From contig WARW01000001.1 in NCBI GenBank assembly GCA_013387215.1, forward strand, positions 12,735-76,734: a stretch of 64,000 nucleotides of DNA. Direction: 5' to 3'. The DNA comes from Patescibacteria group bacterium. Lineage in GTDB: Bacteria; Patescibacteriota; Microgenomatia; UBA12405. The notes beneath the pieces are model-generated. The model searched no databases, was not told the DNA's origin, and saw only the letters and a program-made list of their open reading frames with translations. Within the stretch, counting starts at the first letter, position 1. Each line of letters begins with the position of its first letter. Below, piece after piece: positions 3,403 to 44,374 of the stretch. The translations under genes were made by a program, and so were the position numbers.

Positions 3403-5319
3403 TTGCACCAGTGGGGGCATTTAAGTATGGATAATACAAGCAAAATTGAAACAGGATCAAGATATTTTATTTATTGCCGCAAGTCATCAGACTCCGAAGA
3501 TAAACAAATAGCTTCATTGCCCGACCAAATAAAAGTGATGACTGAGTTGGCACACAAACTAAAATTAAAAATAGTTGATTCTCTCCAAGAGAAAAAATCT
3601 GCCTTTAAAATAGGAAGACCAGTATTTAATCAAATGATTGAAAGAATAAGTAGAGGTGAGGCCGACGCTGTTTTATGTTGGGATCCATCAAGAATTGCTC
3701 GCAATAGTAAAGATAGTGGCAACTTTATTTATCTTATGGATGAAGGAAAACTAAAAGAACTTAGAACTCCAAACAAGACTTTTTACAACACCGCTGATGA
3801 TAAGATGATGCTTAACGTTGAATTTACTATGACTAAAAAATATTCGGATGATTTAAGTGTTAATGTGCACCGCGGTAATCGCCATAAATTTTTTGATCTT
3901 AAGGAATGGGGTGGAGTCGCAAAACCAGGATACCTTAATTACACTGATCCATTGACCAAAGAAAATCATATAAAAACAGACCCTGATAGATTCGAGATGA
4001 TTCAAAAAGCAATCCTTCGGATTTTAGATGGAACTCATACCCCCATGGAATCACTGCGTGAACTTAATAACAAAGGGTATACAACCAGAAAAACAAAGAG
4101 TCTGGGTGGTAGACATTTAAGTAGGGCATCATTTTACAGAATATTAGCTGATAGTTTTTATTGTGGAGTTATGAAAAGAAAAGTAGGTGATAATCGTGAG
4201 GTAGGGAAAGGTTCCCATGAACCAATGATTTCAGAAGCTCAATTTGATTTATTGCAGATAAGACTCGGTAAAAAAGGTAAGCCTAGATATGGTAAAAATA
4301 ATTTTCCATATAAAAATTTATTGAAATGTGGTGAATGTGGTGGATCCGTTACCTGCGAAGAAAAATATCAGATTATCTGTCCTACTTGTAAAACTAAATT
4401 CCATAAAGGCAAAAAAACGGATGAATGTCCGAATTGTCATATGAAGATAGAGGAAATGAAGGATCCAAAACTACTACATTATATTTTTTATCACTGTACA
4501 AAGAGGGTTCATAAAGATTGTAGTCAAGGGAGTATAACTTTGGAAAATATGGAAAAAGAAATCGACTACAAACTGCAAAAGTTTGAGATTGATCAAGATT
4601 ATCGCGATTTTGCCATCGACCATCTGAAGGAATTGAACACCGCCGAGGAACAAGAACAGGAGACTTTAAGGGACAGGCTGAATAAGAGACTGGAAGAAAC
4701 CAACTGGAGCATCAATAACTTGATTAGATTGAGAACCAGAAGAGAAAATGTAAATGACTATGAAAACGAGGACAAACAAAAAGCCTACGATGAAGAAGAA
4801 GATAGATTATTGGCTGAAAAGAAATTACTTAAAAAACAAATAGATGAGGTGGACGGTCAACAGATCGAAAGACTTGAAATGGCGAAAGAAACTTTCGATT
4901 TTGCTTACTATGCCCGCCACTACTTTGCTACTGGAGACGTCCTTACTAAAACCAAAATTCTGGCGAGACTTGGTTCGAACCTAACTATTAAAGATAAAGA
5001 ATTCCATATAGAAGGGGAAAATGCGTTTTTCTTAATCGAGAAAGGTAAGAAGGAGATTGCCGATATCATAAATTCGTTAGAACCTGAAGAAATACCGAAT
5101 AATTCCAAGGGATTATTAGCACTCGAACCAGTTTGTCAATCTTGGCGGAGGAGGTGGGATTCGAACCCACGAGTCCTTTCGAACACACGCTTTCCAGGCG
5201 TGCGCCATAAACCACTAGGCGACTCCTCCTTAGGTGAGAGTATTATATCTTATTACTCTATTTCTTCCAAAGACTCAAAAGAATTTACTGTTTTATTAGG
5301 GCTTCAAGCTGGTTTTTAG
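3403..5319 (+). CDS. Large serine recombinase (resolvase/invertase N-terminal domain, recombinase domain, Cys-rich zinc ribbon, coiled-coil C-terminus).
   Basis: N-terminal YFIYCRKSSDSEDKQ...SLPDQ (catalytic Ser context) and GEADAVLCWDPSRIARN. Central recombinase domain. CGECGG...CPTCKTK...CPNCH zinc-ribbon cluster. Lys/Glu-rich coiled coil. The last ~60 codons run antisense through a tRNA and are probably not real. The true start is probably M at 3427. Confidence 0.7.
   Translation: MHQWGHLSMDNTSKIETGSRYFIYCRKSSDSEDKQIASLPDQIKVMTELAHKLKLKIVDSLQEKKSAFKIGRPVFNQMIERISRGEADAVLCWDPSRIARNSKDSGNFIYLMDEGKLKELRTPNKTFYNTADDKMMLNVEFTMTKKYSDDLSVNVHRGNRHKFFDLKEWGGVAKPGYLNYTDPLTKENHIKTDPDRFEMIQKAILRILDGTHTPMESLRELNNKGYTTRKTKSLGGRHLSRASFYRILADSFYCGVMKRKVGDNREVGKGSHEPMISEAQFDLLQIRLGKKGKPRYGKNNFPYKNLLKCGECGGSVTCEEKYQIICPTCKTKFHKGKKTDECPNCHMKIEEMKDPKLLHYIFYHCTKRVHKDCSQGSITLENMEKEIDYKLQKFEIDQDYRDFAIDHLKELNTAEEQEQETLRDRLNKRLEETNWSINNLIRLRTRRENVNDYENEDKQKAYDEEEDRLLAEKKLLKKQIDEVDGQQIERLEMAKETFDFAYYARHYFATGDVLTKTKILARLGSNLTIKDKEFHIEGENAFFLIEKGKKEIADIINSLEPEEIPNNSKGLLALEPVCQSWRRRWDSNPRVLSNTRFPGVRHKPLGDSSLGESIISYYSISSKDSKEFTVLLGLQAGF
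5143..5229 (-). tRNA. tRNA-Ser (anticodon GGA) with long variable arm; CCA encoded
   Basis: Reverse complement reads GGAGGAGTCGCCTAGTGG...CTGGAAAG...GGGTTCGAATCCCACCTCCTCCGCCA. 7-bp acceptor stem, T-loop TTCGAATCC, anticodon loop CTGGAAA. Confidence 0.8.
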
Positions 5320-5803
5320 CTTTTTTCAGCAATATTTTTTCAGAATCGTAAGCCAATTTTTGGTTGGCTTCATCAAACGTAAACCAATCTCTTTCCAACA
5401 CCAGTTCCTTGTCGTAATATTTCAAATTGCTTGGCTCCAAATATTCCATCAAAAAGAAAGTTACTTTTTTGACAATTTTTTTTCTCAATTCTTTATCCCA
5501 GATAATATAATTGTTTGATCCCAATTTAATTACCACTTTAGCTTTTACTCGGCCTTCTTCTTCCACTTCTCTCAAAGCGGCTTGTTTTAAAAATTCATTT
5601 TTTTGCAAATGGCCTTTGGGAAATTTGTACACCGACTTTAATTCTTTACCTGTCATTCGGCCAATATTCTCCGTCCGGTTGTTGGTTGAAGTTTTAATTA
5701 AAAGCCAATATACTTTTCCGTTCTCAATTTTATAGACCAGTCCACCCGCGGATCGTTCATCGAAGTTCACTTCGTCATTGGTTTTAATTATTTCGGGTTT
5801 CAT
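5285..5803 (-). CDS. NUDIX hydrolase
   Basis: Nudix box GHLQKNEFLKQAALREVEEEGRV matches GX5EX7REUXEEXGU. Confidence 0.7.
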   Translation of the reverse strand: MKPEIIKTNDEVNFDERSAGGLVYKIENGKVYWLLIKTSTNNRTENIGRMTGKELKSVYKFPKGHLQKNEFLKQAALREVEEEGRVKAKVVIKLGSNNYIIWDKELRKKIVKKVTFFLMEYLEPSNLKYYDKELVLERDWFTFDEANQKLAYDSEKILLKKAKNQLEALIKQ

Positions 5804-29041: not shown

Positions 29042-30853
29042 ATGTCAAGAAACATTGAGAGTCCAAGTTTCGTACAAATCAAAGAAGCTTTGGCTTGTCC
29101 GCATATTCAAAAAACCGCTCGCCCTATTGGTGTCGACTTGTTTTATTCGGATCTGGAAAGTGCTAAGGAAAGAAGACAGCTTTTGGAAAAAATGAGCCAT
29201 CTTTTTGATCAGATTCCAGACCTAAACATGGATGTCGATACCGCTTTAAAAAATAATTTAATTAGCTCTGAAAACTTATCTAATGTTTATCAGGATTTAT
29301 CTGATTTCATCAGCTCAGATTCCAATCATTCTCGTTTAGCTTTATATCTGCCTTTCCAAATTATTCCCAATTTAAATCCAGACAATTCAAAAAATATAAC
29401 CGAATCTCAGGTTAAATTTGCTAACGTCTATAAAAATGCTTGGATGCAATTGTTGTTTGAAAGTGATATTCGGGCGGATTTTTTAAACGGAGACACATTA
29501 GAACCAGGCCTAGGCGAACCAGCTCGAGTCAGAAAAGCAGCCCATTTAATACCGGAAATTTTAAAAAAGGGAATTATTGATAAAGAAGATATTGACTTAA
29601 TATTAGAAATAAATAAATCAGATGATGAATTATGCCATTCAATTAACGAAGGAGTAATTGCCTACGAGAAATTAAATAAATCAGAAAAATCTGAGGAAAC
29701 TTCAGAAATTTTTGATTTAGATAATTTAAAAAAAGAACTGGCTCTTATTGATAAAAATTACGGACCAAATTCAGAAAATATTTCCAAATTAAGTCTAAAG
29801 GAAAAATACGATTCGCCCAATCTGCTTGATTCAAAAATCAGCCAAGAAAGAGCTGCTTGGATAAGAAGAACTAAATATGGAGAAACTTTAAATAAATATG
29901 CCCAAAAAATTCATAATTTTAATACCATTGATTCTTTATTAGAAGCAGATGAACCAGTCTATAAAATACTTGGCTTAAAAGCGATTTTTAATCAAAATCA
30001 ACCGACTGATATCTTTGATAAATTAATTGAGGAACAGTGGTTGACTGGTAATAATCAAATCAAGGAAGCAATAATTACCGGCCTAAGTTATTGGCAAAAA
30101 AATAATCTAATTTCTTCACATTACCTAGATCGATTCGGAATTAAAATTCCTGATTTATCACAACCGTTTTCAGTTGATTTAGATAAATTAATTTTGTCCG
30201 ACCTTAAAAATATGACAGAGGCTGTAGAAGGAATTAAAAATGAATCAATTCTTTCTGAAAATATTTATCCAACCATATTAGTATTTGGATCAAGAGTCAA
30301 AGGATATTCTGGTCTTGATTCTGATTATGATATCGCTGTCTTTTTTAAACCAAACGCCTTAATTGATAACCGGAATTCAATTCTTCAATCAATCAAAGCG
30401 ATTCCTTCATTAAAAGAAGTAGGGAAGATATGTGAATTTTGGACAACCGAAAATGATGGAAAAATAGGTCTTAGACCAATCTCAGAAAAAGTTTGGGGCA
30501 TGATTGGACCGGAACAAATTCACTTTTTATTTGGAGGTGCTTGGATTGGTGATAAAACCGATATAAATAAAATACAGCAGGATCTTTTGGAAAAATATTG
30601 TGATTTATCAAGATTTGACCATCAAAAAGATTTGGTACGATCTCGCTTGCTGGGTAATTTAGAATACGATATTCTTCAATGCCGTCTTATGCATAAGGGG
30701 TATCGAAAATTTTATCCTGATAAAATTGATCCGAAAATTAAAAGTATAAACGCTATTGATGGAAATAGTGCCTTTTGGGATCCTGGGTTTAGACGAGTGG
30801 CAACGCAACTTTTTTTGAGTAGAGTATTTTTACCTGATTTATCGGGTAAATAA
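29042..30853 (+). CDS. Large protein with a C-terminal Pol-beta-superfamily nucleotidyltransferase domain. The N-terminal ~400 aa are unknown.
   Basis: GS-x9-DxD motif ILVFGSRVKGYSGLDSDYDIAVFF (MNT/KNTase-like). Convergent with the PurA-like operon, with a 15-nt overlap. Confidence 0.55.
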   Translation: MSRNIESPSFVQIKEALACPHIQKTARPIGVDLFYSDLESAKERRQLLEKMSHLFDQIPDLNMDVDTALKNNLISSENLSNVYQDLSDFISSDSNHSRLALYLPFQIIPNLNPDNSKNITESQVKFANVYKNAWMQLLFESDIRADFLNGDTLEPGLGEPARVRKAAHLIPEILKKGIIDKEDIDLILEINKSDDELCHSINEGVIAYEKLNKSEKSEETSEIFDLDNLKKELALIDKNYGPNSENISKLSLKEKYDSPNLLDSKISQERAAWIRRTKYGETLNKYAQKIHNFNTIDSLLEADEPVYKILGLKAIFNQNQPTDIFDKLIEEQWLTGNNQIKEAIITGLSYWQKNNLISSHYLDRFGIKIPDLSQPFSVDLDKLILSDLKNMTEAVEGIKNESILSENIYPTILVFGSRVKGYSGLDSDYDIAVFFKPNALIDNRNSILQSIKAIPSLKEVGKICEFWTTENDGKIGLRPISEKVWGMIGPEQIHFLFGGAWIGDKTDINKIQQDLLEKYCDLSRFDHQKDLVRSRLLGNLEYDILQCRLMHKGYRKFYPDKIDPKIKSINAIDGNSAFWDPGFRRVATQLFLSRVFLPDLSGK

Positions 30854-32290
30854 GTATTCGTATCCTGATCTTATTTTTCTATCTTTTGCTTTTGGTCCCC
30901 ATCCTTCAGCCACTACTGGAATTTGGATCTTTTCTTCAACATAATCCAAAAAAGTATCGACCATTGTTTTGTTATTTTCGGGTTTAAGGGTAGATAAAAT
31001 TGGCTGGCATTGATTAAGTAATTTAGTCAATTGCAGTTGGTGTTTATAATGAGCTTCGTCTTGAGTATTAGGATAAATTTTAATTCCAGTAATGATATCG
31101 TTTTCCATTTCAAAGTAGTCTTCCAAATTAGTATTTTCTCCATTAAATTTATAGCCCTCACAAATCTGCCACTCATTTTTTTGAGATAAAACATCAAGAT
31201 AACTGATCATTAGACCGTCAAAAGATTTCTTTCCGCCGCTAATTTCAACAGCATATTTCATGGCCACAATATCATAATTACCATTTCTAAATTCTCCCAG
31301 CCATTCAGTCCAATTATTGTGAGTTTCCTGAATTGAATCAGTCATTTCTCGATTAAAACTAACCAGTGGGCCGGCTCCATGGCGGGTCATATAGCATCGG
31401 CTAACACCAATTCGGACTATCTCCCCTGAATAATTTTGTTTTTGAAGAGTGCCAAGAATATCTTGAGAAGTTGGATCGATTTGAGTAGTGTGAGGAATAA
31501 AGCCGTACCATGGGTGTAAAAGTGCACCATGAGAAGTTTCGCAGACCACTAAACCTTCTTGTGACAGCATTTCATTTAAATAATTATCGTCAACAATTTT
31601 GAACAAATCGGCAGTGTATTTGAATGATTTGGCAGTTGATCCAACAAAACTTTGATCATAAAGTATTTCCAATTGTTCATATGCTTCTTCCGGCAATTGA
31701 TCTAATCCAAGAATTAGTTTTTGAGCTTGTTGAATTTTATTTTGCCGGATATTTTCTATTTTTTGGCACAAAGTTTCTTCATCATCGCTAAAATCGCCGG
31801 CTCTGATTGTTAGTTGTGGATCTTTTGAATCTTTTATGGCTTCGCCAACCCCCATACCAACTGTTCCTTTCTTGTCTTTACCTCGCATAATTTCGCGAAG
31901 TCGGCTTATAGCCCGGTGAAACGGAGTTATGGAAATACATTCTTTATCGATAGTTATTAAATCGAATGGATTTTTTACTCCCTTTTCTTCAACCTCAATA
32001 GCCTCATTAAAGAGATCAGTCGGGCAGATTACCATGTGTTTTAAGTGAGTTTTAGCGCCGTCAAAAGTACCAGCCCCAAAATGGCTAAACATTTGTTCTC
32101 GCCCATCTTCGGCTGTAATATGGTGTCCGGATTGGCAGCCTCCTGATCGCCAAACAGTATGAGCATTAAGCATTTTAGTAAAAGCTTCAACTGTGTTGCC
32201 TTTGGTTTCTTCGCCAATACCTAAACCAGTAACCACAATGACTTTATTTTTGGGCTTTTCAAAATTAATATTTGAAATTATTTCTTTCAT
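30839..32290 (-). CDS. Adenylosuccinate synthetase (PurA)-family protein, divergent paralog 1
   Basis: PurA-like P-loop GLGIGEETKGN (compare GDEGKGK), GGCQSGHH (compare GGHNAGHT), TVGMGVGEAI (compare TTGRGIGP), RHGAGPL (compare RVGAGPFP). The catalytic Asp is replaced by Glu in the P-loop. Confidence 0.65.
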   Translation of the reverse strand: MKEIISNINFEKPKNKVIVVTGLGIGEETKGNTVEAFTKMLNAHTVWRSGGCQSGHHITAEDGREQMFSHFGAGTFDGAKTHLKHMVICPTDLFNEAIEVEEKGVKNPFDLITIDKECISITPFHRAISRLREIMRGKDKKGTVGMGVGEAIKDSKDPQLTIRAGDFSDDEETLCQKIENIRQNKIQQAQKLILGLDQLPEEAYEQLEILYDQSFVGSTAKSFKYTADLFKIVDDNYLNEMLSQEGLVVCETSHGALLHPWYGFIPHTTQIDPTSQDILGTLQKQNYSGEIVRIGVSRCYMTRHGAGPLVSFNREMTDSIQETHNNWTEWLGEFRNGNYDIVAMKYAVEISGGKKSFDGLMISYLDVLSQKNEWQICEGYKFNGENTNLEDYFEMENDIITGIKIYPNTQDEAHYKHQLQLTKLLNQCQPILSTLKPENNKTMVDTFLDYVEEKIQIPVVAEGWGPKAKDRKIRSGYEYLFTR

Positions 32291-34975: not shown

Positions 34976-35476
34976 TTAGATTCTAATCCGTGAATCAGCA
35001 GGCCTGATGCCTTTTTGGTAAACCAATTGCATTAGTACCTTTAGTTGCGGACCAAAATCCTTTTTCAGATCTTCAGGCATAGTATTAAGAAACTGGTAGT
35101 CATCCTTGAAAAGAAAGCTAGATAAACTAGTCAATTCCGGATTTTTTTCAACCAGACTCAAATATGCCTCCCTGGTGGCGGTTGTAAACACTTCTTTGGG
35201 AGCACAGGCACGCAGGGTTAAGATGTGAACAGGTTTCATCGTATTCCAACCAGTCTTATGTTCGGAAAACATGTTGGCATCCATACGTTCTGCATTCTCA
35301 AATAACCAAGTGGCAACTTTGGAAACATCTTCCTCTTGAATTATCCTCAGATAATCCCTCAGGAAATCATTACTTGCGAAAGGAATTGCCTCCAGCGGGT
35401 CGGTCCTCCTTAGACAGTTTTTCCCATGGAATCGATGTACCGAGTTGTAACAGGGCAGCAAGATATGCATATTCAT
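34976..35476 (-). CDS. Hypothetical protein. Overlaps the upstream gene by 107 nt in a different frame, so it may be a frameshifted continuation or start at internal Met 35284.
   Basis: ORF track. Protein-like composition continues on both sides of the overlap. Confidence 0.3.
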   Translation of the reverse strand: MNMHILLPCYNSVHRFHGKNCLRRTDPLEAIPFASNDFLRDYLRIIQEEDVSKVATWLFENAERMDANMFSEHKTGWNTMKPVHILTLRACAPKEVFTTATREAYLSLVEKNPELTSLSSFLFKDDYQFLNTMPEDLKKDFGPQLKVLMQLVYQKGIRPADSRIRI

Positions 35477-36521
35477 ATTGGCCAGCTGTTACTTTCGGAT
35501 ATTCCATAATGGACAAAGCATACCTGGTGATACTACGCTCCATTCTGACATAATCAGCTGAAACATTCACATCAAGCATTTTGAGCATCTGTTCTTTGTT
35601 GGCGGCGCCAATTTGAGCTGGTAGGGCTGAATTTTCCAAAACCTCTTTGATTCTGTTGGCATCCAATGCTAAAGCCCTGGCAATCACGATACCTGTGCCG
35701 GCAAAAACCTTGTTGATCTTATCAATCACACCTTCAGCTCCATCGCGCAATGCGCTTGTATCGGGTGGCTGCTGCATCATACCTGCTGGCATTCCTGCTT
35801 GGCCTCCTGTTGCATAAATAGCAAGAGCCATCATTGCTGTAGGAGCTACTCCTTGCTGGTACGAATTAACCCATGACACAACCTGCTGGTTGTACTCGTA
35901 GAGTGCTGGCCAGAGATTCGTCCTGAGTTTATTGAGCAACGCGTCTTTCTTTCCCTGGGTTACGCTGGCACTGTCGATGTCGAGAGCCTGGAAGATTTCT
36001 GCATAATTACGTTTGGTAACCAGTTTCTGCAGCTTGTAGAAATCTTCTCCGCACGGTTCTTCCTGTTCTTCGGCAAATTTTTCCATCCGGTCCATAATGA
36101 TTTTGGGCAATTCGTAAAGACCGCTTTTGTCTGCCAATGTTGCCCTGATGGCTGCAATAATTTCAGTTATGCCGATTTTCAGCTCTCCACCTATTTTCAG
36201 CATGGCTAAAAATGAGGTATCGTCCGGAACCTGTGGCAGAACGTCCATTGACGGTTGAGCTGCTGCTGTTGCAGTTGCTTCAATTTTCGGTTTTTCCTCC
36301 TCTTTGGGTTTGAATGCTGCCGCAATTTTTTTTGCTACCACAGCACCGCATCCGGCATAAGATTTGATCTCGTCGGCTGACAATAAAACCATGTCCGCTT
36401 CAGTCATTACCCCTTCAGTTTCCAGTTTTGCAATTTGGTCTTCTTTAAGTCCGAGCTCGGTTAGCCTCAGTTTCAATGTTTCTTCCATAACAAAATCTCC
36501 CTTCATCTTTGAAATCACCAC
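35370..36521 (-). CDS. Hypothetical Ala/Gln-rich protein with N-terminal helix-hairpin-helix-like module. First gene of the second transcription unit.
   Basis: LTELGLKEDQIAKLETEGVMTEADMVLLSADEIKSYAGCGAVVAKKI (HhH-like). Local GC is noticeably higher than the surroundings. Confidence 0.4.
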   Translation of the reverse strand: MVISKMKGDFVMEETLKLRLTELGLKEDQIAKLETEGVMTEADMVLLSADEIKSYAGCGAVVAKKIAAAFKPKEEEKPKIEATATAAAQPSMDVLPQVPDDTSFLAMLKIGGELKIGITEIIAAIRATLADKSGLYELPKIIMDRMEKFAEEQEEPCGEDFYKLQKLVTKRNYAEIFQALDIDSASVTQGKKDALLNKLRTNLWPALYEYNQQVVSWVNSYQQGVAPTAMMALAIYATGGQAGMPAGMMQQPPDTSALRDGAEGVIDKINKVFAGTGIVIARALALDANRIKEVLENSALPAQIGAANKEQMLKMLDVNVSADYVRMERSITRYALSIMEYPKVTAGQYEYAYLAALLQLGTSIPWEKLSKEDRPAGGNSFRK

Positions 36522-36866: not shown

Positions 36867-38213
36867 TTAAATATCAATCGAAATCTTTTGATCTCGATCA
36901 GGGCCAACTGAAATTAAACCGATAGGAACGCCTAATTGTCCCTCGATATACTCCAGTAAGCTTCTAGTTTTAGAAGGTAAGTCTAAATAATTTTTGATAT
37001 TTGAAATATCATCTTCCCATCCTGGAAGGGTAGTGTAGACAGGCTGGCAGTTCCAAAGCAATTTCGACATTACTTCATCCTGCTTTTGCAGTTTCACTCC
37101 TACAATCTGATTATTGGGCCCGAAATCAAAGTATTTGTTTAAGGTTTCTTCGCTCTCTTTGCCGATATATCGGTAAGAATTTGCAAATTTGATTTCTTTT
37201 AAACCAGACATTTTGTCCAAGCAGGACACTACCAGTTTGTCGATTCTTTTGTTCACTTGAAGCGAATATCTAAGCAGTACAAAATCTAGCCAGCCTTGTC
37301 TGACAAATCTTTGCCAAGGAGTATAAACGTTATGAGTTTCTTCCAGATTTAAGTTTTCATCTACTGTTGGAAATGGTCCTGCCCCATGTCGGACACTGTA
37401 TGGTCTTAATAATCCTAGTATAACCGCTTCTTTTTCTCCAAGAAGTTCCAATGCATTAGCTATGGATGTCCTAGTCTGGGTGATATTTGGTTTAAAACCA
37501 TAATCGCAATCCAAAATTGTGCCCTGAGCTGCCTCAAAAATATTATTTTGAGTTTGGATTATCTTTTGTATTTCTTCATCACTTAAAATACCCACCCTTT
37601 TGGTAAGTTCCAAATAAATTTTAGCCAATCCTTTTGGTGAGTACATTTCAAACTCTTCTAAAAGTATTTTTGTTTCTTCGTTACTGGCTAGCTGTTCTAT
37701 CTGGTCAAGTTTTAACATCTTTAGTGTTTTTAGCTTGTATTCCAGATCAGGTCTCAACAGATCTTTCGCTCTAATACTAAATGCAGGATTTGTCCTTTCA
37801 TCTATAACCGTTTCTCCAACACCTCTTCCGCAAGTTCCTTTTTTGGTTGTTCTTAGTATTTCTTTTATCTTTCCGCAGATTATTTGGTAGGGGGTAATTA
37901 CTAAAGAGTTTTCTGATATCAATAATTTTTCAAATGGATCAGAAATACCCTTAGTTTCTAGTTTTTCTCCCTCTACCAAAATTCCGATTGGATCAATCAA
38001 AGTAAACTTTGAAATTATAGTTTTTAAACCAACAAAGGTTCCGGATCCGAATTGGGAAAAGGTGTGGTGGATCCCACTCGACACCACATTGTGAGCACAC
38101 TGAGATCCACCGCAATATCTGACCACATTTCCTCCATATTTTGAGGCTAAAAAATCAACCATTGATCCTTTACATTCGTCACCTTTATCTAGGCCCACAG
38201 TTATCCAATCCAT
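36867..38213 (-). CDS. Adenylosuccinate synthetase (PurA)-family protein, paralog 2 (closer to canonical)
   Basis: GLDKGDECKGSMVD (P-loop GDEGKGK), CGGSQCAHNV (GGHNAGHT), TCGRGVGETV (TTGRGIGP), VRHGAGPFPTVDE (RVGAGPFPTE). Confidence 0.7.
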   Translation of the reverse strand: MDWITVGLDKGDECKGSMVDFLASKYGGNVVRYCGGSQCAHNVVSSGIHHTFSQFGSGTFVGLKTIISKFTLIDPIGILVEGEKLETKGISDPFEKLLISENSLVITPYQIICGKIKEILRTTKKGTCGRGVGETVIDERTNPAFSIRAKDLLRPDLEYKLKTLKMLKLDQIEQLASNEETKILLEEFEMYSPKGLAKIYLELTKRVGILSDEEIQKIIQTQNNIFEAAQGTILDCDYGFKPNITQTRTSIANALELLGEKEAVILGLLRPYSVRHGAGPFPTVDENLNLEETHNVYTPWQRFVRQGWLDFVLLRYSLQVNKRIDKLVVSCLDKMSGLKEIKFANSYRYIGKESEETLNKYFDFGPNNQIVGVKLQKQDEVMSKLLWNCQPVYTTLPGWEDDISNIKNYLDLPSKTRSLLEYIEGQLGVPIGLISVGPDRDQKISIDI

Positions 38214-39785: not shown

Positions 39786-40739
39786 TTAAAATTCAAACAC
39801 TTGGAATCCGATATCTCCCCATATTTCTTTCCTCAATTCGTACAGTTTTTTTGCCATATCCCATGCATCCCTAGCCCTTTGTATTGGACTGGAGATTAAA
39901 AAGTTTTCTATAAATCTTTGGAATCGGGGGTCAACAGTATCAGGAAGACTATTATCCTCAAGATTGCCACCCAAAAGGTAAATCATACATTTACCAATGG
40001 AATACATATCTGAAGATTCTTTTGGTTCGTCTTTTTTCTGCACCTCCGGAGCGCTGTAATCATCATTTACTGCCCTAAAACCAGCCTTATTTATTGAAGC
40101 ATAACTCCAATCAATCAAACAGGCATTATGGTCATCTTTATGATTAGTCAGCAAATCCACAGGTTTTATGAGAATGTGTGCCGGTTCAATATTGCAATGA
40201 AATATTCCTTTACTATGGGCATATCCCACTGCTGCTAAAATTCGGCACAGCATCCAGGCGGCATGATAATCGGGAACTCCCGACACATACAATGGATGTT
40301 CTCTGATTTGGTTAAGGTTGAAACCCTCAAACTTCTGAAGAATTATCCCCACCGTCTTTTCTTTTGTTTTAAATCTATCCAGGAATTTTGGCAAATGAAC
40401 TTGGTTTTGGTTTTCTTCTGCAAATAATGCATTTAAGATTTTTATCTCATTATTTGCAAACTTATTGTCGATTTCTTCTTTGATTACTTTAACAATGATG
40501 TTTATGCTTTCGCTTTCATTGGCAAAATAACCCTCATAAATCATCGACAAGTCGCCCTCACCAATAACTTTGTTGACGTGGTATTCACGATTTTTAATCG
40601 TTATTACCCAGTCCAGTTTCTCAGATTCATTTGTTGCATTTGAAGCCCCTAAAACTACACCAGTCAACCAGCTTTGAGGATTTTTTTCATCCATTTTTAT
40701 CACCCTTTCTTTATTAATCAGTTTCGATTTTGATATCAA
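39786..40739 (-). CDS. Hanks-type protein-kinase-like protein, probable pseudokinase
   Basis: Gly-rich loop VIGEGDLSMIYEG, VAIK-like IIVKVIK, catalytic-loop HCNIEPAHILI (HRD Asp replaced by Asn), DFG-like IDWSYA, APE motif YSAPEV. The likely start is M at 40694, giving N-terminus MDEKNPQSWLTGVVLG. Confidence 0.55.
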   Translation of the reverse strand: MISKSKLINKERVIKMDEKNPQSWLTGVVLGASNATNESEKLDWVITIKNREYHVNKVIGEGDLSMIYEGYFANESESINIIVKVIKEEIDNKFANNEIKILNALFAEENQNQVHLPKFLDRFKTKEKTVGIILQKFEGFNLNQIREHPLYVSGVPDYHAAWMLCRILAAVGYAHSKGIFHCNIEPAHILIKPVDLLTNHKDDHNACLIDWSYASINKAGFRAVNDDYSAPEVQKKDEPKESSDMYSIGKCMIYLLGGNLEDNSLPDTVDPRFQRFIENFLISSPIQRARDAWDMAKKLYELRKEIWGDIGFQVFEF

Positions 40740-41468: not shown

Positions 41469-41939
41469 TTACTGTTTTATTCTCTTGCAAAAATTATCAA
41501 ACTTTTCTTGATAAATTTTTTTGTCTTTTAATTCTTTTGTATTCCACCCTTCAAAAATATCAATCTTTTTATCTACCAATTTTTGCAAGCTAGCCACTGT
41601 TTTCTCTGGTTTAGTATCGCCGGAAGTAATAAAAATTATTACTTTTTTAAATTGTTTTTTAAATTTATCAATATAAGTCCTTACTGCTGGAGTTGAATTC
41701 CAACCCCATACTGGTGTGCCGACAATAACGACATCATAATCTTTTGGATCTTTACAGGTTTTTATTTCAGTTAAATATTCTTTCATTCCATCTCTTCCGC
41801 TCAAAAGCCAGCCTTTTATTCCGCTTCTGTCTTTTAAATCGATTATTTCATCAACATCTGCTTTTAAATTTTCAGCCAAATCCAAAGCTACCCTTTTAGT
41901 ATTTCCTGTTTTTGAATAATAGGTGATTAAGTATTTCAT
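41469..41939 (-). CDS. Flavodoxin
   Basis: Signature MKYLITYYSKTGNTKRVA (T/SxTGxT FMN-phosphate loop). About 156 aa. Confidence 0.8.
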   Translation of the reverse strand: MKYLITYYSKTGNTKRVALDLAENLKADVDEIIDLKDRSGIKGWLLSGRDGMKEYLTEIKTCKDPKDYDVVIVGTPVWGWNSTPAVRTYIDKFKKQFKKVIIFITSGDTKPEKTVASLQKLVDKKIDIFEGWNTKELKDKKIYQEKFDNFCKRIKQ

Positions 41940-42061
41940 AACTTTATTTTACCTTAACTTTCTACGCATCTATCGACTCAATTGATCTGAATGATCATAT
42001 ATGATACATTACTTCACTCGCATGGTTGTGAGAATTTGCACCTTAAAAAGGAGAAAGACGC

Positions 42062-43120
42062 ATGAATAAATTGTTTGATTTTGAAGCGCATCCGCAAGCT
42101 GCTTGGCTAACCACCAACAGAGATTGTGATGCCAGGTGTCCACATTGTTATGCCCAAGGAACTCATTATGATCCTGCTGATGATATGACTATCGAAACTG
42201 CCAAATCACTTCTGGCTTTACTTGTTAGTATCGACATAAAGCTTGTCACTACTTTAGGAGGAGAGCCGCTGCTTTGGAAGCCGTTGTTGGAATTCAATCG
42301 GATTGCCAAAAGCTTGGGTATTACTACCAAAATGGCAACAAATGCATTTCGTTTTGGTGATAATGAATTTTGGCAAAGATATCTAAAAAATCCTTGTGAT
42401 TCCGTCGGTATCTCTATCAAAGGAGTCGGCGCCGAAATGCTCAAAAGATTGGCTAATGTCACAGATTATGAAAAAGCTGAAAAAGGTATTAAACGAGCCA
42501 TGAATTTTTACAAAAATGGCGTTGGTACGGTTTTTAGCAGCTTGATGACTCTCGACGACCTGTGGAAAATTGCCGAAACTACCCACGAATGGGGAGCAAA
42601 AACATTTTCCATTGGATTTGCCTGTGCCACTTTGGACTCAGAAGGTTGCCCTTCGAAGAAAAACTATATGATTAAGCTCGACAAAATCGAGGAGTTCATC
42701 CAAGTATACGAAAGAATCGATGAGCTTTTTGAAGGCAGTGTTGGTTTTGAACCCCAGCTTCCGTTTTGTTTATTCAGGGAAGATTTTATTGATAAGTTGA
42801 TTGATAAGGGTCAGCTGTCGAATGGTTGTTTTGTCAACAGCCGCGGCGGATTTACCTTCGATAAAGATGGTAATGTTTTGATCTGCAACTCGATTTATCA
42901 TGAACCTATCGGAAGAATCGGCAAAGATTTCACCGATGGCTCCACCCTGATTAATCATCTTAATAGTGAACCTATCAAAGATATTTTCAGGGAGCTTTTG
43001 CGTTATCCGTCCGATGTTTGCCTGGCCTGCCGCTACAACAAATACTGTCGTGGAGGCTGTGTTATCAATTGGACTGCTTTAACGCCAGACATATTACAGC
43101 CTGTTTTAAAGGAGGTGTAA
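42062..43120 (+). CDS. Radical SAM enzyme with C-terminal SPASM domain (peptide-modifying maturase)
   Basis: CxxxCxxC CDARCPHC. SPASM Cys cluster CFVNSRGG...ICNS...CLACRYNKYCRGGC. Confidence 0.85.
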   Translation: MNKLFDFEAHPQAAWLTTNRDCDARCPHCYAQGTHYDPADDMTIETAKSLLALLVSIDIKLVTTLGGEPLLWKPLLEFNRIAKSLGITTKMATNAFRFGDNEFWQRYLKNPCDSVGISIKGVGAEMLKRLANVTDYEKAEKGIKRAMNFYKNGVGTVFSSLMTLDDLWKIAETTHEWGAKTFSIGFACATLDSEGCPSKKNYMIKLDKIEEFIQVYERIDELFEGSVGFEPQLPFCLFREDFIDKLIDKGQLSNGCFVNSRGGFTFDKDGNVLICNSIYHEPIGRIGKDFTDGSTLINHLNSEPIKDIFRELLRYPSDVCLACRYNKYCRGGCVINWTALTPDILQPVLKEV

Positions 43121-43122
43121 TC

Positions 43123-43368
43123 ATGGATAAATTTTTAAACAGTTTAAACAAAATTGGTTCGAAAGAAACCGAACCTGTCCAACCCTTATCTCCAACCTGT
43201 GCCAAATCCCATTGCGCTTGTGAACATTGCGAATGTCAATGTCAGTGTCAATGCCAATGCAGCCCGAGTCAAAAAGATATCGAAGATATTGTCAAAAAAA
43301 CAGTCAAAGAAGTTAGTAAGGAACAGAAAAAAGACAATAATAACGATAACAACGATAACAACAAATGA
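43123..43368 (+). CDS. Cys-repeat precursor peptide (putative RiPP core, or metal-binding peptide). Starts 2 nt after the rSAM stop.
   Basis: MDKFLNSLNKIGSKETEPVQPLSPT leader-like N-terminus, then CAKSHCACEHCECQCQCQCQCS (9 Cys, CxC repeats), then a Lys/Asn/Asp-rich tail. Confidence 0.55.
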   Translation: MDKFLNSLNKIGSKETEPVQPLSPTCAKSHCACEHCECQCQCQCQCSPSQKDIEDIVKKTVKEVSKEQKKDNNNDNNDNNK

Positions 43369-43375
43369 ATTACGG

Positions 43376-43412
43376 GCCCACCCGCTGAATCTATGAGACC
43401 AGCGGGTTTTTT
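43376..43412 (+). terminator. Rho-independent terminator
   Basis: cccgctgaatctatgagaccagcggg followed by a T9 run. Confidence 0.7.
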
Positions 43413-43454
43413 TTTTGCCCAAAATCAGGAAATTTATTACAAAATGCAATTTTG

Positions 43455-43538
43455 CGGAGAGAGAGGGACTCGAACCCCCAAGCCCTTGCGGGCGGCAACT
43501 TTCGAGGTTGCTGCCTTACCAATTCGGCGCATCTCTCC
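43455..43538 (-). tRNA. tRNA-Ser (anticodon CGA), long variable arm
   Basis: Reverse complement reads GGAGAGATGCGCCGAATTGGTAAGGCAGCAACCTCGAAAGTTGC...GGGGTTCGAGTCCCTCTCTCTCCG. Anticodon loop CTCGAAA. Confidence 0.75.
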
Positions 43539-43563
43539 AAAGAAGATTACAGGGAAACTGCTG

Positions 43564-43635
43564 TGCGCCTACCAGGAATCGAACCTGGATCAACGGTTCC
43601 GCAAACCGCTATTCTATCCATTAAACTATAAGCGC
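43564..43635 (-). tRNA. tRNA-Arg (anticodon GCG)
   Basis: Reverse complement reads GCGCTTATAGTTTAATGGATAGAATAGCGGTTTGCGGAACCGTTGATCCAGGTTCGATTCCTGGTAGGCGCA. Anticodon loop TTGCGGA. Confidence 0.7.
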
Positions 43636-44284: not shown

Positions 44285-44367
44285 GGAAGGATGCGGCGAA
44301 TGGTAAGCCACAGGTTTGCTAAACCTGCGCCCGAAAGGACATGAGGGTTCGACTCCCTCTCCTTCCG
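44285..44367 (+). tRNA. tRNA-Ser (anticodon GCU), long variable arm
   Basis: GGAAGGATGCGGCGAATGGTAAGCCACAGGTTTGCTAAACCTG...GAGGGTTCGACTCCCTCTCCTTCCG. Anticodon loop TTGCTAA. Confidence 0.7.
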
Positions 44368-44374
44368 CTCAAAA

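Follow-up and report, generated by a model that had tools for sequence, protein, structure and literature searches.

The stretch of DNA analyzed here (the window) is 64,000 nucleotides (nt) long and comes from a Patescibacteria group bacterium (GenBank assembly GCA_013387215.1, contig WARW01000001.1, positions 12,735–76,734 of the forward strand). The locus of interest comprises a flavodoxin gene, a divergently transcribed gene for a radical S-adenosylmethionine (SAM) enzyme, hereafter rSAM, with a SPASM-type cysteine pattern, a gene for a Cys-rich peptide of 81 amino acids (aa), and an intrinsic terminator. A first-pass annotation, made from the sequence alone, read these as a candidate cluster for a peptide made by ribosomes and modified after its translation (RiPP), and the genes and terminator lie where it had placed them (Table 1). 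Comparison with related sequences indicates that the rSAM and peptide genes are a conserved two-gene unit, present mostly in bacteria of the Candidate Phyla Radiation (CPR)/Patescibacteria.

Table 1. Features of the rSAM/peptide locus. Positions are those of the window; L numbers denote loci of relatives; RRE, RiPP recognition element.
Feature	Positions	Strand	Remarks
Flavodoxin gene	41469–41939	−	156 aa; Pfam Flavodoxin_4
Upstream region kept with the cassette	41997–42061	+	L001, L006 and L007 are similar by blastn from ~41997–42026 onward
Radical SAM/SPASM-type enzyme gene	42062–43120	+	352 aa; PF04055; without N-terminal RRE domain
CxxxCxxC motif (C22, C26, C29)	42125–42148	+	Invariant in 28 family members
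SPASM-like auxiliary-cluster region	42767–43060	+	C236, C256-x13-G270-x4-C275, C320-x2-C323-x5-C329-x3-C333
Shine-Dalgarno GGAGG of the peptide gene	43111–43115	+	Inside the end of the rSAM gene; 7 nt 5′ of the ATG
Peptide leader, residues 1–25	43123–43197	+	Family motif M-x-x-(F/L)-L-x-x-L-N-K-(I/T)-G; alignment of 27 precursors
Cys-x-Cys core, residues 26–46, CAKSHCACEHCECQCQCQCQC	43198–43260	+	9 Cys
Lys/Glu/Asn-rich C-terminal tail, residues 47–81, and stop codon	43261–43368	+	
Intrinsic terminator	43380–43417	+	8-bp stem, then U10

The peptide gene

The rSAM and peptide genes are translationally coupled. The rSAM stop codon (TAA, 43118–43120) is separated by a 2-nt spacer (tc) from the ATG of the peptide gene at 43123, and the peptide sequence, MDKFLNSLNKIGSKETEPVQPLSPTCAKSHCACEHCECQCQCQCQCSPSQKDIEDIVKKTVKEVSKEQKKDNNNDNNDNNK, is as read in the first-pass annotation. 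It can be divided into leader, core and tail (MDKFLNSLNKIGSKETEPVQPLSPT-CAKSHCACEHCECQCQCQCQC-SPSQKDIEDIVKKTVKEVSKEQKKDNNNDNNDNNK). A promoter and the ribosome-binding site of the rSAM gene (AAGGAG) are presumably located in the upstream region of Table 1. The terminator had been described as strong, and folding bears this out: the G+C stem of 8 bp (43380–43387 with 43400–43407) gives −18.4 kcal/mol (z = −3.1 versus shuffled sequences). Folding was used in place of a pattern scanner, which overlooked this terminator because its loop is longer than 8 nt. A terminator-like stem and T-run are retained in L008, L007 and L001. An Rfam scan of the window showed tRNAs only, with no riboswitch or leader RNA at the two genes.

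The exact peptide is missing from the public protein collection, i.e. it is not called as a gene there, and its CQ repeat is low-complexity DNA. Both points would suit an unexpressed small open reading frame next to a housekeeping flavodoxin/rSAM pair, with the CxC frame being an accident of a (TGY-CAR)n repeat. Comparative data essentially exclude this. The peptide open reading frame has 6 overlapping CxC motifs, the maximum among stop-to-stop segments of the window, and in 50 shuffles of the window no segment has more than 4. Among 5.8 billion clustered proteins or their contigs there are only three close homologues of the peptide (L008, L007 and a truncated L006), and a fourth, more divergent one is found in L001. 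In core codons 23–47, the window and L008 show 11 synonymous and 0 non-synonymous differences (pS = 0.89, pN = 0), and the window and L007 show 9 synonymous and 1 non-synonymous; the leader diverges faster than the core (pN about 0.2). The ATG and Shine-Dalgarno sequence are kept in a four-way DNA alignment, with GGAGG invariant. The TGY-CAR repeat codons vary synonymously among relatives, thus the CQ repeat is not a recent slippage product. In addition, homologous peptide open reading frames are found at at least about 40 loci and the linkage with flavodoxin is not conserved, as described below. These comparisons indicate that the peptide is a real gene, that it is translated, and that its core is under strong purifying selection.

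The window peptide shows no match to Pfam or NCBIfam models, metallothionein families included, and four precursor peptides tested show none in NCBIfam. An AlphaFold model of the peptide alone has low confidence (pLDDT 57); residues 2–11 form a helix at low confidence, and a helix predicted in the tail at residues 50–71 is the only moderately supported part. The tail is 32–57 aa long in the window, L008, L007 and L001, and 0–8 aa elsewhere in the family. A charged tail of 32–57 residues thus appears to be confined to the window clade (the window, L006–L008 and L001). L001 has lost the CQ repeat yet keeps His30 and Cys26/31/33.

The radical SAM enzyme

The window enzyme is a member of the radical SAM superfamily, with a PF04055 score of 63.3 bits (cut-off 29.5). 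Over 28 family members the invariant residues are C22/C26/C29, G66-G67-E68 (the GGE SAM-binding motif), N94, S118, C275, C320, C323, C329 and C333, and C236, C256 and G270 are nearly invariant. SPASM domains are defined by the seven-Cys pattern C-x9-15-G-x4-C ... C-x2-C-x5-C-x3-C ... C and bind two auxiliary [4Fe-4S] clusters. The segments C256-x13-G-x4-C275 and C320-x2-C-x5-C-x3-C333 of the window enzyme fit this pattern up to C333, and the relative L009 passes the TIGR04085 model (40.8 bits versus 27). No start codon is possible before 42062, and residue 22 is already part of the cluster motif; therefore there is no room for an N-terminal RRE domain.

The AlphaFold model of the enzyme is confident (pLDDT 88.5). 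It superposes equally well on ChlB, the anaerobic sulfatase-maturating enzyme anSME, CteB, SuiB and SkfB, over 284–293 residues. Profile searches match PqqE, SuiB, SkfB, CteB and anSME, and CteB is the only match in a single-sequence search of the PDB. The enzyme class, a SPASM-type peptide-modifying rSAM, appears clear. The structural neighbors make thioethers, C–C cross-links or carbonyls, and therefore the fold does not choose the reaction.

Membership of the SCIFF or ranthipeptide maturase families, to which the first-pass annotation had pointed, is not found. In NCBIfam (June 2026 version) the window enzyme scores 32.8 bits with TIGR03974 (cut-off 425), 34 with the PapB model NF047865 (cut-off 340), 49 with the StsB model NF045574 (cut-off 625) and 36.6 with the GeoRSP model TIGR04303 (cut-off 400). 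Six relatives give 41–72 bits with the PapB model, below its cut-off of 340. The anSME model TIGR03942 is outside the top 25 matches of the window enzyme, and L009 scores 64.7 with it (cut-off 349); no sulfatase is present among the scanned genes neighboring the two genes. Assignment of the enzyme to the SCIFF, PapB, StsB, anSME or GeoRSP families was accordingly rejected, the scores being under each cut-off.

One locus first taken as a relative, L038, was dropped: its enzyme is a GeoRSP rSAM (547.7 bits, cut-off 400) with a PqqD-like gene upstream. A sister clade (P0188, P0189, P0192–P0195, P0198 and P0200) has rSAM proteins of 460–514 aa with a GNAT acetyltransferase fused at the C-terminus (PF13302/PF00583).

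Relatives of the pair and its genomic surroundings

Only four relatives of the window enzyme with ≥45% identity were found by word index. A profile search of 1.84 billion representatives yielded 218 clusters at E ≤ 1e-30, and pattern scans of species genomes and metagenomes gave at least about 40 full-length relatives with 25%–43% identity. The metagenome scan added at least 10 family loci, none closer than 40% identity among the matches listed, and a scan of viral contigs showed no family member. Overall, the related rSAM genes span 25%–82% identity and are mostly from metagenome-assembled genomes (MAGs) of Patescibacteria. About 22 of the 29 genome-scan matches are Patescibacteria/CPR MAGs (Saccharibacteria, CPR2, Vogelbacteria, Portnoybacteria, WWE3, Paceibacterota); the few others are from Clostridia or Oscillospiraceae, Myxococcales and Nitrospirae. 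This taxonomic sample is biased, because the scan patterns came from the window clade. The rSAM reading frame is interrupted (genetic code 11) in L027, L034, L035 and L037, and these may be pseudogenes, assembly errors or cases of an alternative code.

A short open reading frame is located directly 3′ of the enzyme gene in nearly all of these loci (at least about 40), down to 25% enzyme identity. The exceptions in position are L032, where it is 5′ of the enzyme gene, and L021, where it is between two paralogues. Most of these open reading frames are 37–99 aa in length; that of L014 has 21 aa. An alignment of 27 precursors displays a common leader consensus, M-x-x-L-x-x-x-L-x-x-T/S-G. Examples are DCKCRCANCKCNCYCSQCKNC (L028), KCRCQCDCRCKCRGDVHCRCAC (L022) and YCDCNGFCQCDCDCTYCPCSQNC (L015). 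In 30 peptides the Cys-to-Cys spacing is one residue in 103 of 179 cases, and in most of these cases D, Q, K, N, R, A or E stands between the two Cys. This combination of a conserved leader with a hypervariable, Cys-rich C-terminal core is, at the level of sequence, the signature of RiPP precursors. The adjoining short gene, the conserved leader with variable core and the co-inheritance of the two genes are what is expected of a RiPP maturase and its precursor, and, with the coupling and core selection seen in the window, they agree with the earlier description of the pair as maturase and precursor. The first-pass annotation had also considered that the peptide might be untranslated, or that the enzyme might be an orthologue of a housekeeping modifier (anaerobic sulfatase-maturase-like) with the peptide gene missing from relatives. 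Neither is the case: relatives do carry the peptide gene, and the enzyme has no orthology to such a modifier.

The flavodoxin (52 bits with Flavodoxin_4, cut-off 24) had been taken as part of the cluster, and here the earlier description has to be revised. In L006 (82% identical) an unrelated gene is found upstream of the two-gene cassette, and in L001 (71% identical) that place is taken by a resolvase and a DNA methyltransferase; neither has a flavodoxin beside the cassette, nor is there one among the conserved neighbors of 34 loci. At the nucleotide level the window resembles its relatives only from ~41997 to ~43435, a range that begins past the flavodoxin. The G+C content is 0.41 in the cassette, 0.30–0.31 in the flavodoxin gene and 0.30–0.35 downstream. 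The unshared linkage, the edge of similarity at ~41997 and the difference in G+C thus show the flavodoxin to be a chance neighbor and not a member of the cassette. Flavodoxins are electron donors to rSAM enzymes in general, and on this general ground, not from its position at this locus, the flavodoxin can be the in vivo reductant of the window enzyme while being genetically outside the cassette.

The contexts of the cassette differ among the window, L001, L006 and L007, and similarity ends at the cassette edges. In L007 the cassette is beside a NUDIX gene (L007 1982–2461, minus strand) that is 70% identical to window positions 5285–5803 (minus strand). The window NUDIX gene is 37 kb from the cassette, next to a tRNA-Ser gene (5143–5229). 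Thus the cassette occupies different sites in related genomes. By these comparisons it appears to behave as a mobile unit of 1.4 kb, located here beside tRNA genes, with two opposite-strand tRNA genes directly 3′ of the terminator.

The tRNA genes downstream of the cassette are Ser(cga), Arg(gcg) and Ser(gct), at 43454–43635 (minus strand) and 44285–44368 (plus strand); L008 ends in a 29-nt match to the tRNA-Ser there. In L001 (5147–9186), the genes just upstream of the cassette are for a DNA methyltransferase of the N6/N4 type and for a large serine recombinase that matches Resolvase and Zn_ribbon_recom. These L001 neighbors hint at a mobile-element context.

Additional genes accompany the pair in many relatives. 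A gene for a small protein with an HExxH motif (123–294 aa) is directly 3′ of the peptide gene in ~26 of ~44 loci, e.g. L014 11276–11905, L004 1544–2254 and L024 2376–2771. The HExxH proteins form three sequence clusters, of which A and C are related (95% hhalign probability) and the A–B link is weak; six that were tested show no Pfam or NCBIfam match. They may act as leader peptidases, but alpha-ketoglutarate (alpha-KG)-dependent hydroxylases and oxidative cleavers are also among the HExxH proteins of RiPP clusters (PMC12636437). In L004 (45% enzyme identity) the HExxH gene is present and the peptide carries no tail. Genes for ATP-binding cassette (ABC) exporters lie beside the pair in L013 and L032, and tandem rSAM paralogues are present in L021 and L030. 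A gene for an MvdD-like ATP-grasp protein (a graspetide-type ligase) is located within a few kb of the cassette in L014 (8635–9660) and L016 (7220–8197), both Patescibacteria.

Elsewhere in the window there are two divergent adenylosuccinate-synthetase (PF00709) paralogues 6 kb apart (30839–32290 and 36867–38213, both minus strand). Proteins with no Pfam match come after each of them, and after the second there is a Pkinase gene (39786–40739) as well; the region looks like a duplicated module. A peak in G+C of 0.45–0.47, against ~0.35 around it, is found at 35200–36400 and overlaps an open reading frame of 383 aa without a Pfam match (35370–36521, minus strand).

Proposed modification and comparison with known systems

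The explanation that is favored, and that is considered probable, is that ~41997–43417 is a RiPP-type cassette of two genes, self-contained and horizontally mobile, in which the Cys core of the peptide is modified by the SPASM maturase, most likely with thioether cross-links. With regard to its parts, it is very likely that the rSAM and the peptide are a maturase/substrate pair. For thioether formation as the chemistry, which is argued by analogy, the chance is put slightly below even.

Under the favored explanation, both genes would be carried on one mRNA that ends at the terminator, and the 81-aa precursor would be translated from its own strong ribosome-binding site. Direct recognition of the conserved N-terminal leader by the 352-aa enzyme is proposed, since the enzyme has no RRE domain. 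SAM would be cleaved at the [4Fe-4S] cluster of the CxxxCxxC motif to give a 5′-deoxyadenosyl radical, which, together with SPASM-type auxiliary Fe–S clusters, would modify the Cys-x-Cys core. The likeliest products would be intramolecular bridges from Cys sulfur to carbon, i.e. thioethers of the sactionine or ranthionine type. Polar residues that lie between the Cys would be the acceptors: Q, E, A and H in the window, and D, Q, K, N and R elsewhere. The window core has 12 non-Cys residues and 9 Cys, enough for them to act as acceptors. Thioethers are favored because Cys is the sole core feature found family-wide and because CteB, SkfB, PapB and StsB form such bonds; StsB, an rSAM/SPASM enzyme, makes them on a CxCxC motif (PMC10288494). 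In most relatives the HExxH protein, and sometimes an ABC exporter, would complete the system. The window has no HExxH gene and no adjoining exporter or peptidase, and its peptide has a long tail; therefore the modified product may here be retained as a small protein instead of being cleaved and exported as a peptide.

Two types of motif were rejected in the course of the analysis. PapB-like C-x3-D/E and NxxC motifs are not the organizing pattern of the core (by inspection, the window core has a single C-x3-E, C33..E37), and cyclophane (aromatic-x-x) motifs are not a family-wide feature, the aromatic residues being unconserved.

Several observations weigh against the favored explanation. The Pfam SPASM model PF13186 does not detect the window protein; therefore, of the earlier rSAM/SPASM description, the rSAM part stands by domain score, and the SPASM part by the Cys motif, the relatives and the predicted fold. 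There is no conserved eighth Cys after C333 in the family, and one auxiliary cluster may therefore be incompletely ligated or have a ligand other than Cys. Every curated NCBIfam cut-off lies far above the scores of the window enzyme and of 15 other family members. An oxidizing enzyme (anSME) and two that form C–C cross-links (SuiB and ChlB) superpose on the model as well as the others do. L010, L019 and L021 keep the leader with 3–4 Cys only and no CxC motif. The window core is without a distinct acceptor half like the GxGxG in StsA. A Pfam scan of the neighboring window genes shows no exporter or peptidase adjoining the cassette, and a six-frame hmmsearch of the 64 kb with profiles of the three HExxH clusters shows no homologue (best E = 0.3–0.5, 4–5.5 bits).

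Some of these points lead to a different reaction of the same maturase/substrate pair, which is thought rather unlikely: anSME-like oxidation of Cys (to formylglycine or thioaldehyde), epimerization, cyclophane-type C–C cross-links of His or other side chains, or some other reaction for tuning a peptide that binds metal or is redox-active. The enzyme fits no curated thioether family, the core is metallothionein-like, so that free thiols could be its functional groups, and His30 with Cys26/31/33 is kept even in L001 despite the loss of the CQ repeat. Against another chemistry is the fact that Cys alone is conserved family-wide in the core. The lack of conserved aromatic residues disfavors cyclophanes, and by inspection no sulfatase-type CxPxR/SxPxR target is present in the listed peptides. 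In addition, thioethers are the products of most characterized SPASM enzymes whose precursors are Cys-rich (PMC10288494).

The same Cys-x-Cys density and polar interleaved residues may suggest that the peptide is not a substrate, but a metallothionein-like binder of metal or Fe–S, serving as a metal buffer or as a cluster or sulfur donor for an enzyme that acts elsewhere. The long structured tail of the window clade and its lack of an HExxH gene would be in accordance with this. A leader-like motif that is conserved next to cores that vary freely in length and sequence is, however, what a RiPP precursor shows and a folded metal protein does not. In relatives, genes for HExxH proteins and ABC exporters are found with the pair, and no other candidate substrate gene is conserved near the family loci. 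The absence of a metallothionein match for the peptide, noted above, also stands against a binder. This role is considered improbable, and modification of the peptide by the adjoining maturase is preferred.

Radical SAM/SPASM peptide maturases are a main source of new peptide chemistry. The genomes of Patescibacteria are tiny and contain very few biosynthetic gene clusters, and to our knowledge almost no natural products from them have been characterized. That the cassette is kept and exchanged in such genomes suggests a function in episymbiotic life, metal handling or competition. A substrate of alternating Cys-x-Cys would also probe how SPASM enzymes handle densely packed thiols. It is possible, though doubtful, that the system is a structurally new class of RiPP, in which an RRE-less SPASM enzyme turns a metallothionein-like (Cys-x)n array into an unprecedented product, and in which the window clade keeps a small tailed protein. 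If so, this would be the first characterized RiPP from Patescibacteria/CPR bacteria, and its product may be an unbroken ladder of thioether rings, each very small and formed between neighboring residues, or a modified poly-thiolate chelator active in metal binding or redox.

No description of an rSAM/CxC-peptide family was found in full-text literature searches, and the curated hidden Markov model libraries cover neither the enzyme, the peptide nor the HExxH partner. Two large compendia of rSAM RiPPs were collected via RRE association or co-localization with ABC transporters (PMC10288494). The window cassette has no RRE and no adjoining ABC transporter, which may explain why the family is uncurated.

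Several known systems resemble the pair in part. PapB, the maturase of the freyrasin ranthipeptide (NF047865), is likewise a compact SPASM rSAM of ~330–350 aa, and the alignment is full-length but weak (window residues 17–344 versus model positions 8–327 of 330). Both have a Cys-rich repeat core with partner residues of the Asp/Glu/Asn type. Unlike the C-x3-D repeat of PapB, the window repeat is C-x-C; the leader differs also, and the window family is mainly from Patescibacteria. SCIFF/CteB (TIGR03974; PDB 5wgg) shares the Cys-rich C-terminal core and an adjacent precursor gene. CteB, however, has an N-terminal RRE of ~100 aa, which the window enzyme lacks, and the SCIFF motif is absent from the window peptide (no match with TIGR03973).

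anSME (TIGR03942; PDB 4k36) is likewise a SPASM enzyme without RRE, of ~370 aa, and its target is a Cys in a peptide, but the co-conserved neighbor of the window enzyme is a peptide with leader and Cys core and not a sulfatase. Systems of the ChlBH/FxsB type (PDB 9gm3; PMC12636437) combine an rSAM/SPASM enzyme with an HExxH partner, as do most relatives of the window pair. The cyclophanes of ChlB are formed on aromatic residues, and the HExxH domain of that system is a fused alpha-KG hydroxylase (PMC12636437). The HExxH proteins of the present family are, in contrast, separate proteins of 123–294 aa that belong to no curated family and are absent from the window. Metallothioneins are similar in being short, with ~40%–50% Cys within the core, C-x-C and C-x-x-C spacing and polar interleaved residues, but they have no leader peptide or dedicated rSAM partner, and the window peptide shows no sequence-family match.

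StsB/StsA of Streptomyces sparsogenes (NF045574; PMC10288494) also has CxCxC in the core and an rSAM/SPASM enzyme. In StsA, however, the CxCxC is paired in a hairpin with a GxGxG acceptor half, and the window core has no GxGxG. StsA needs the RRE protein StsC for full processing, whereas no RRE or PqqD-like gene is present near the window enzyme, which aligns with StsB over the N-terminal rSAM core only. The CxCxCx4GxGxG sactipeptide StsA is the nearest described item, and it differs in the acceptor half, in RRE dependence and in enzyme family. The pair thus looks like a member of an undescribed family within the rSAM/SPASM class of RiPPs, with an unusual substrate of alternating Cys and a distribution centered on CPR bacteria.

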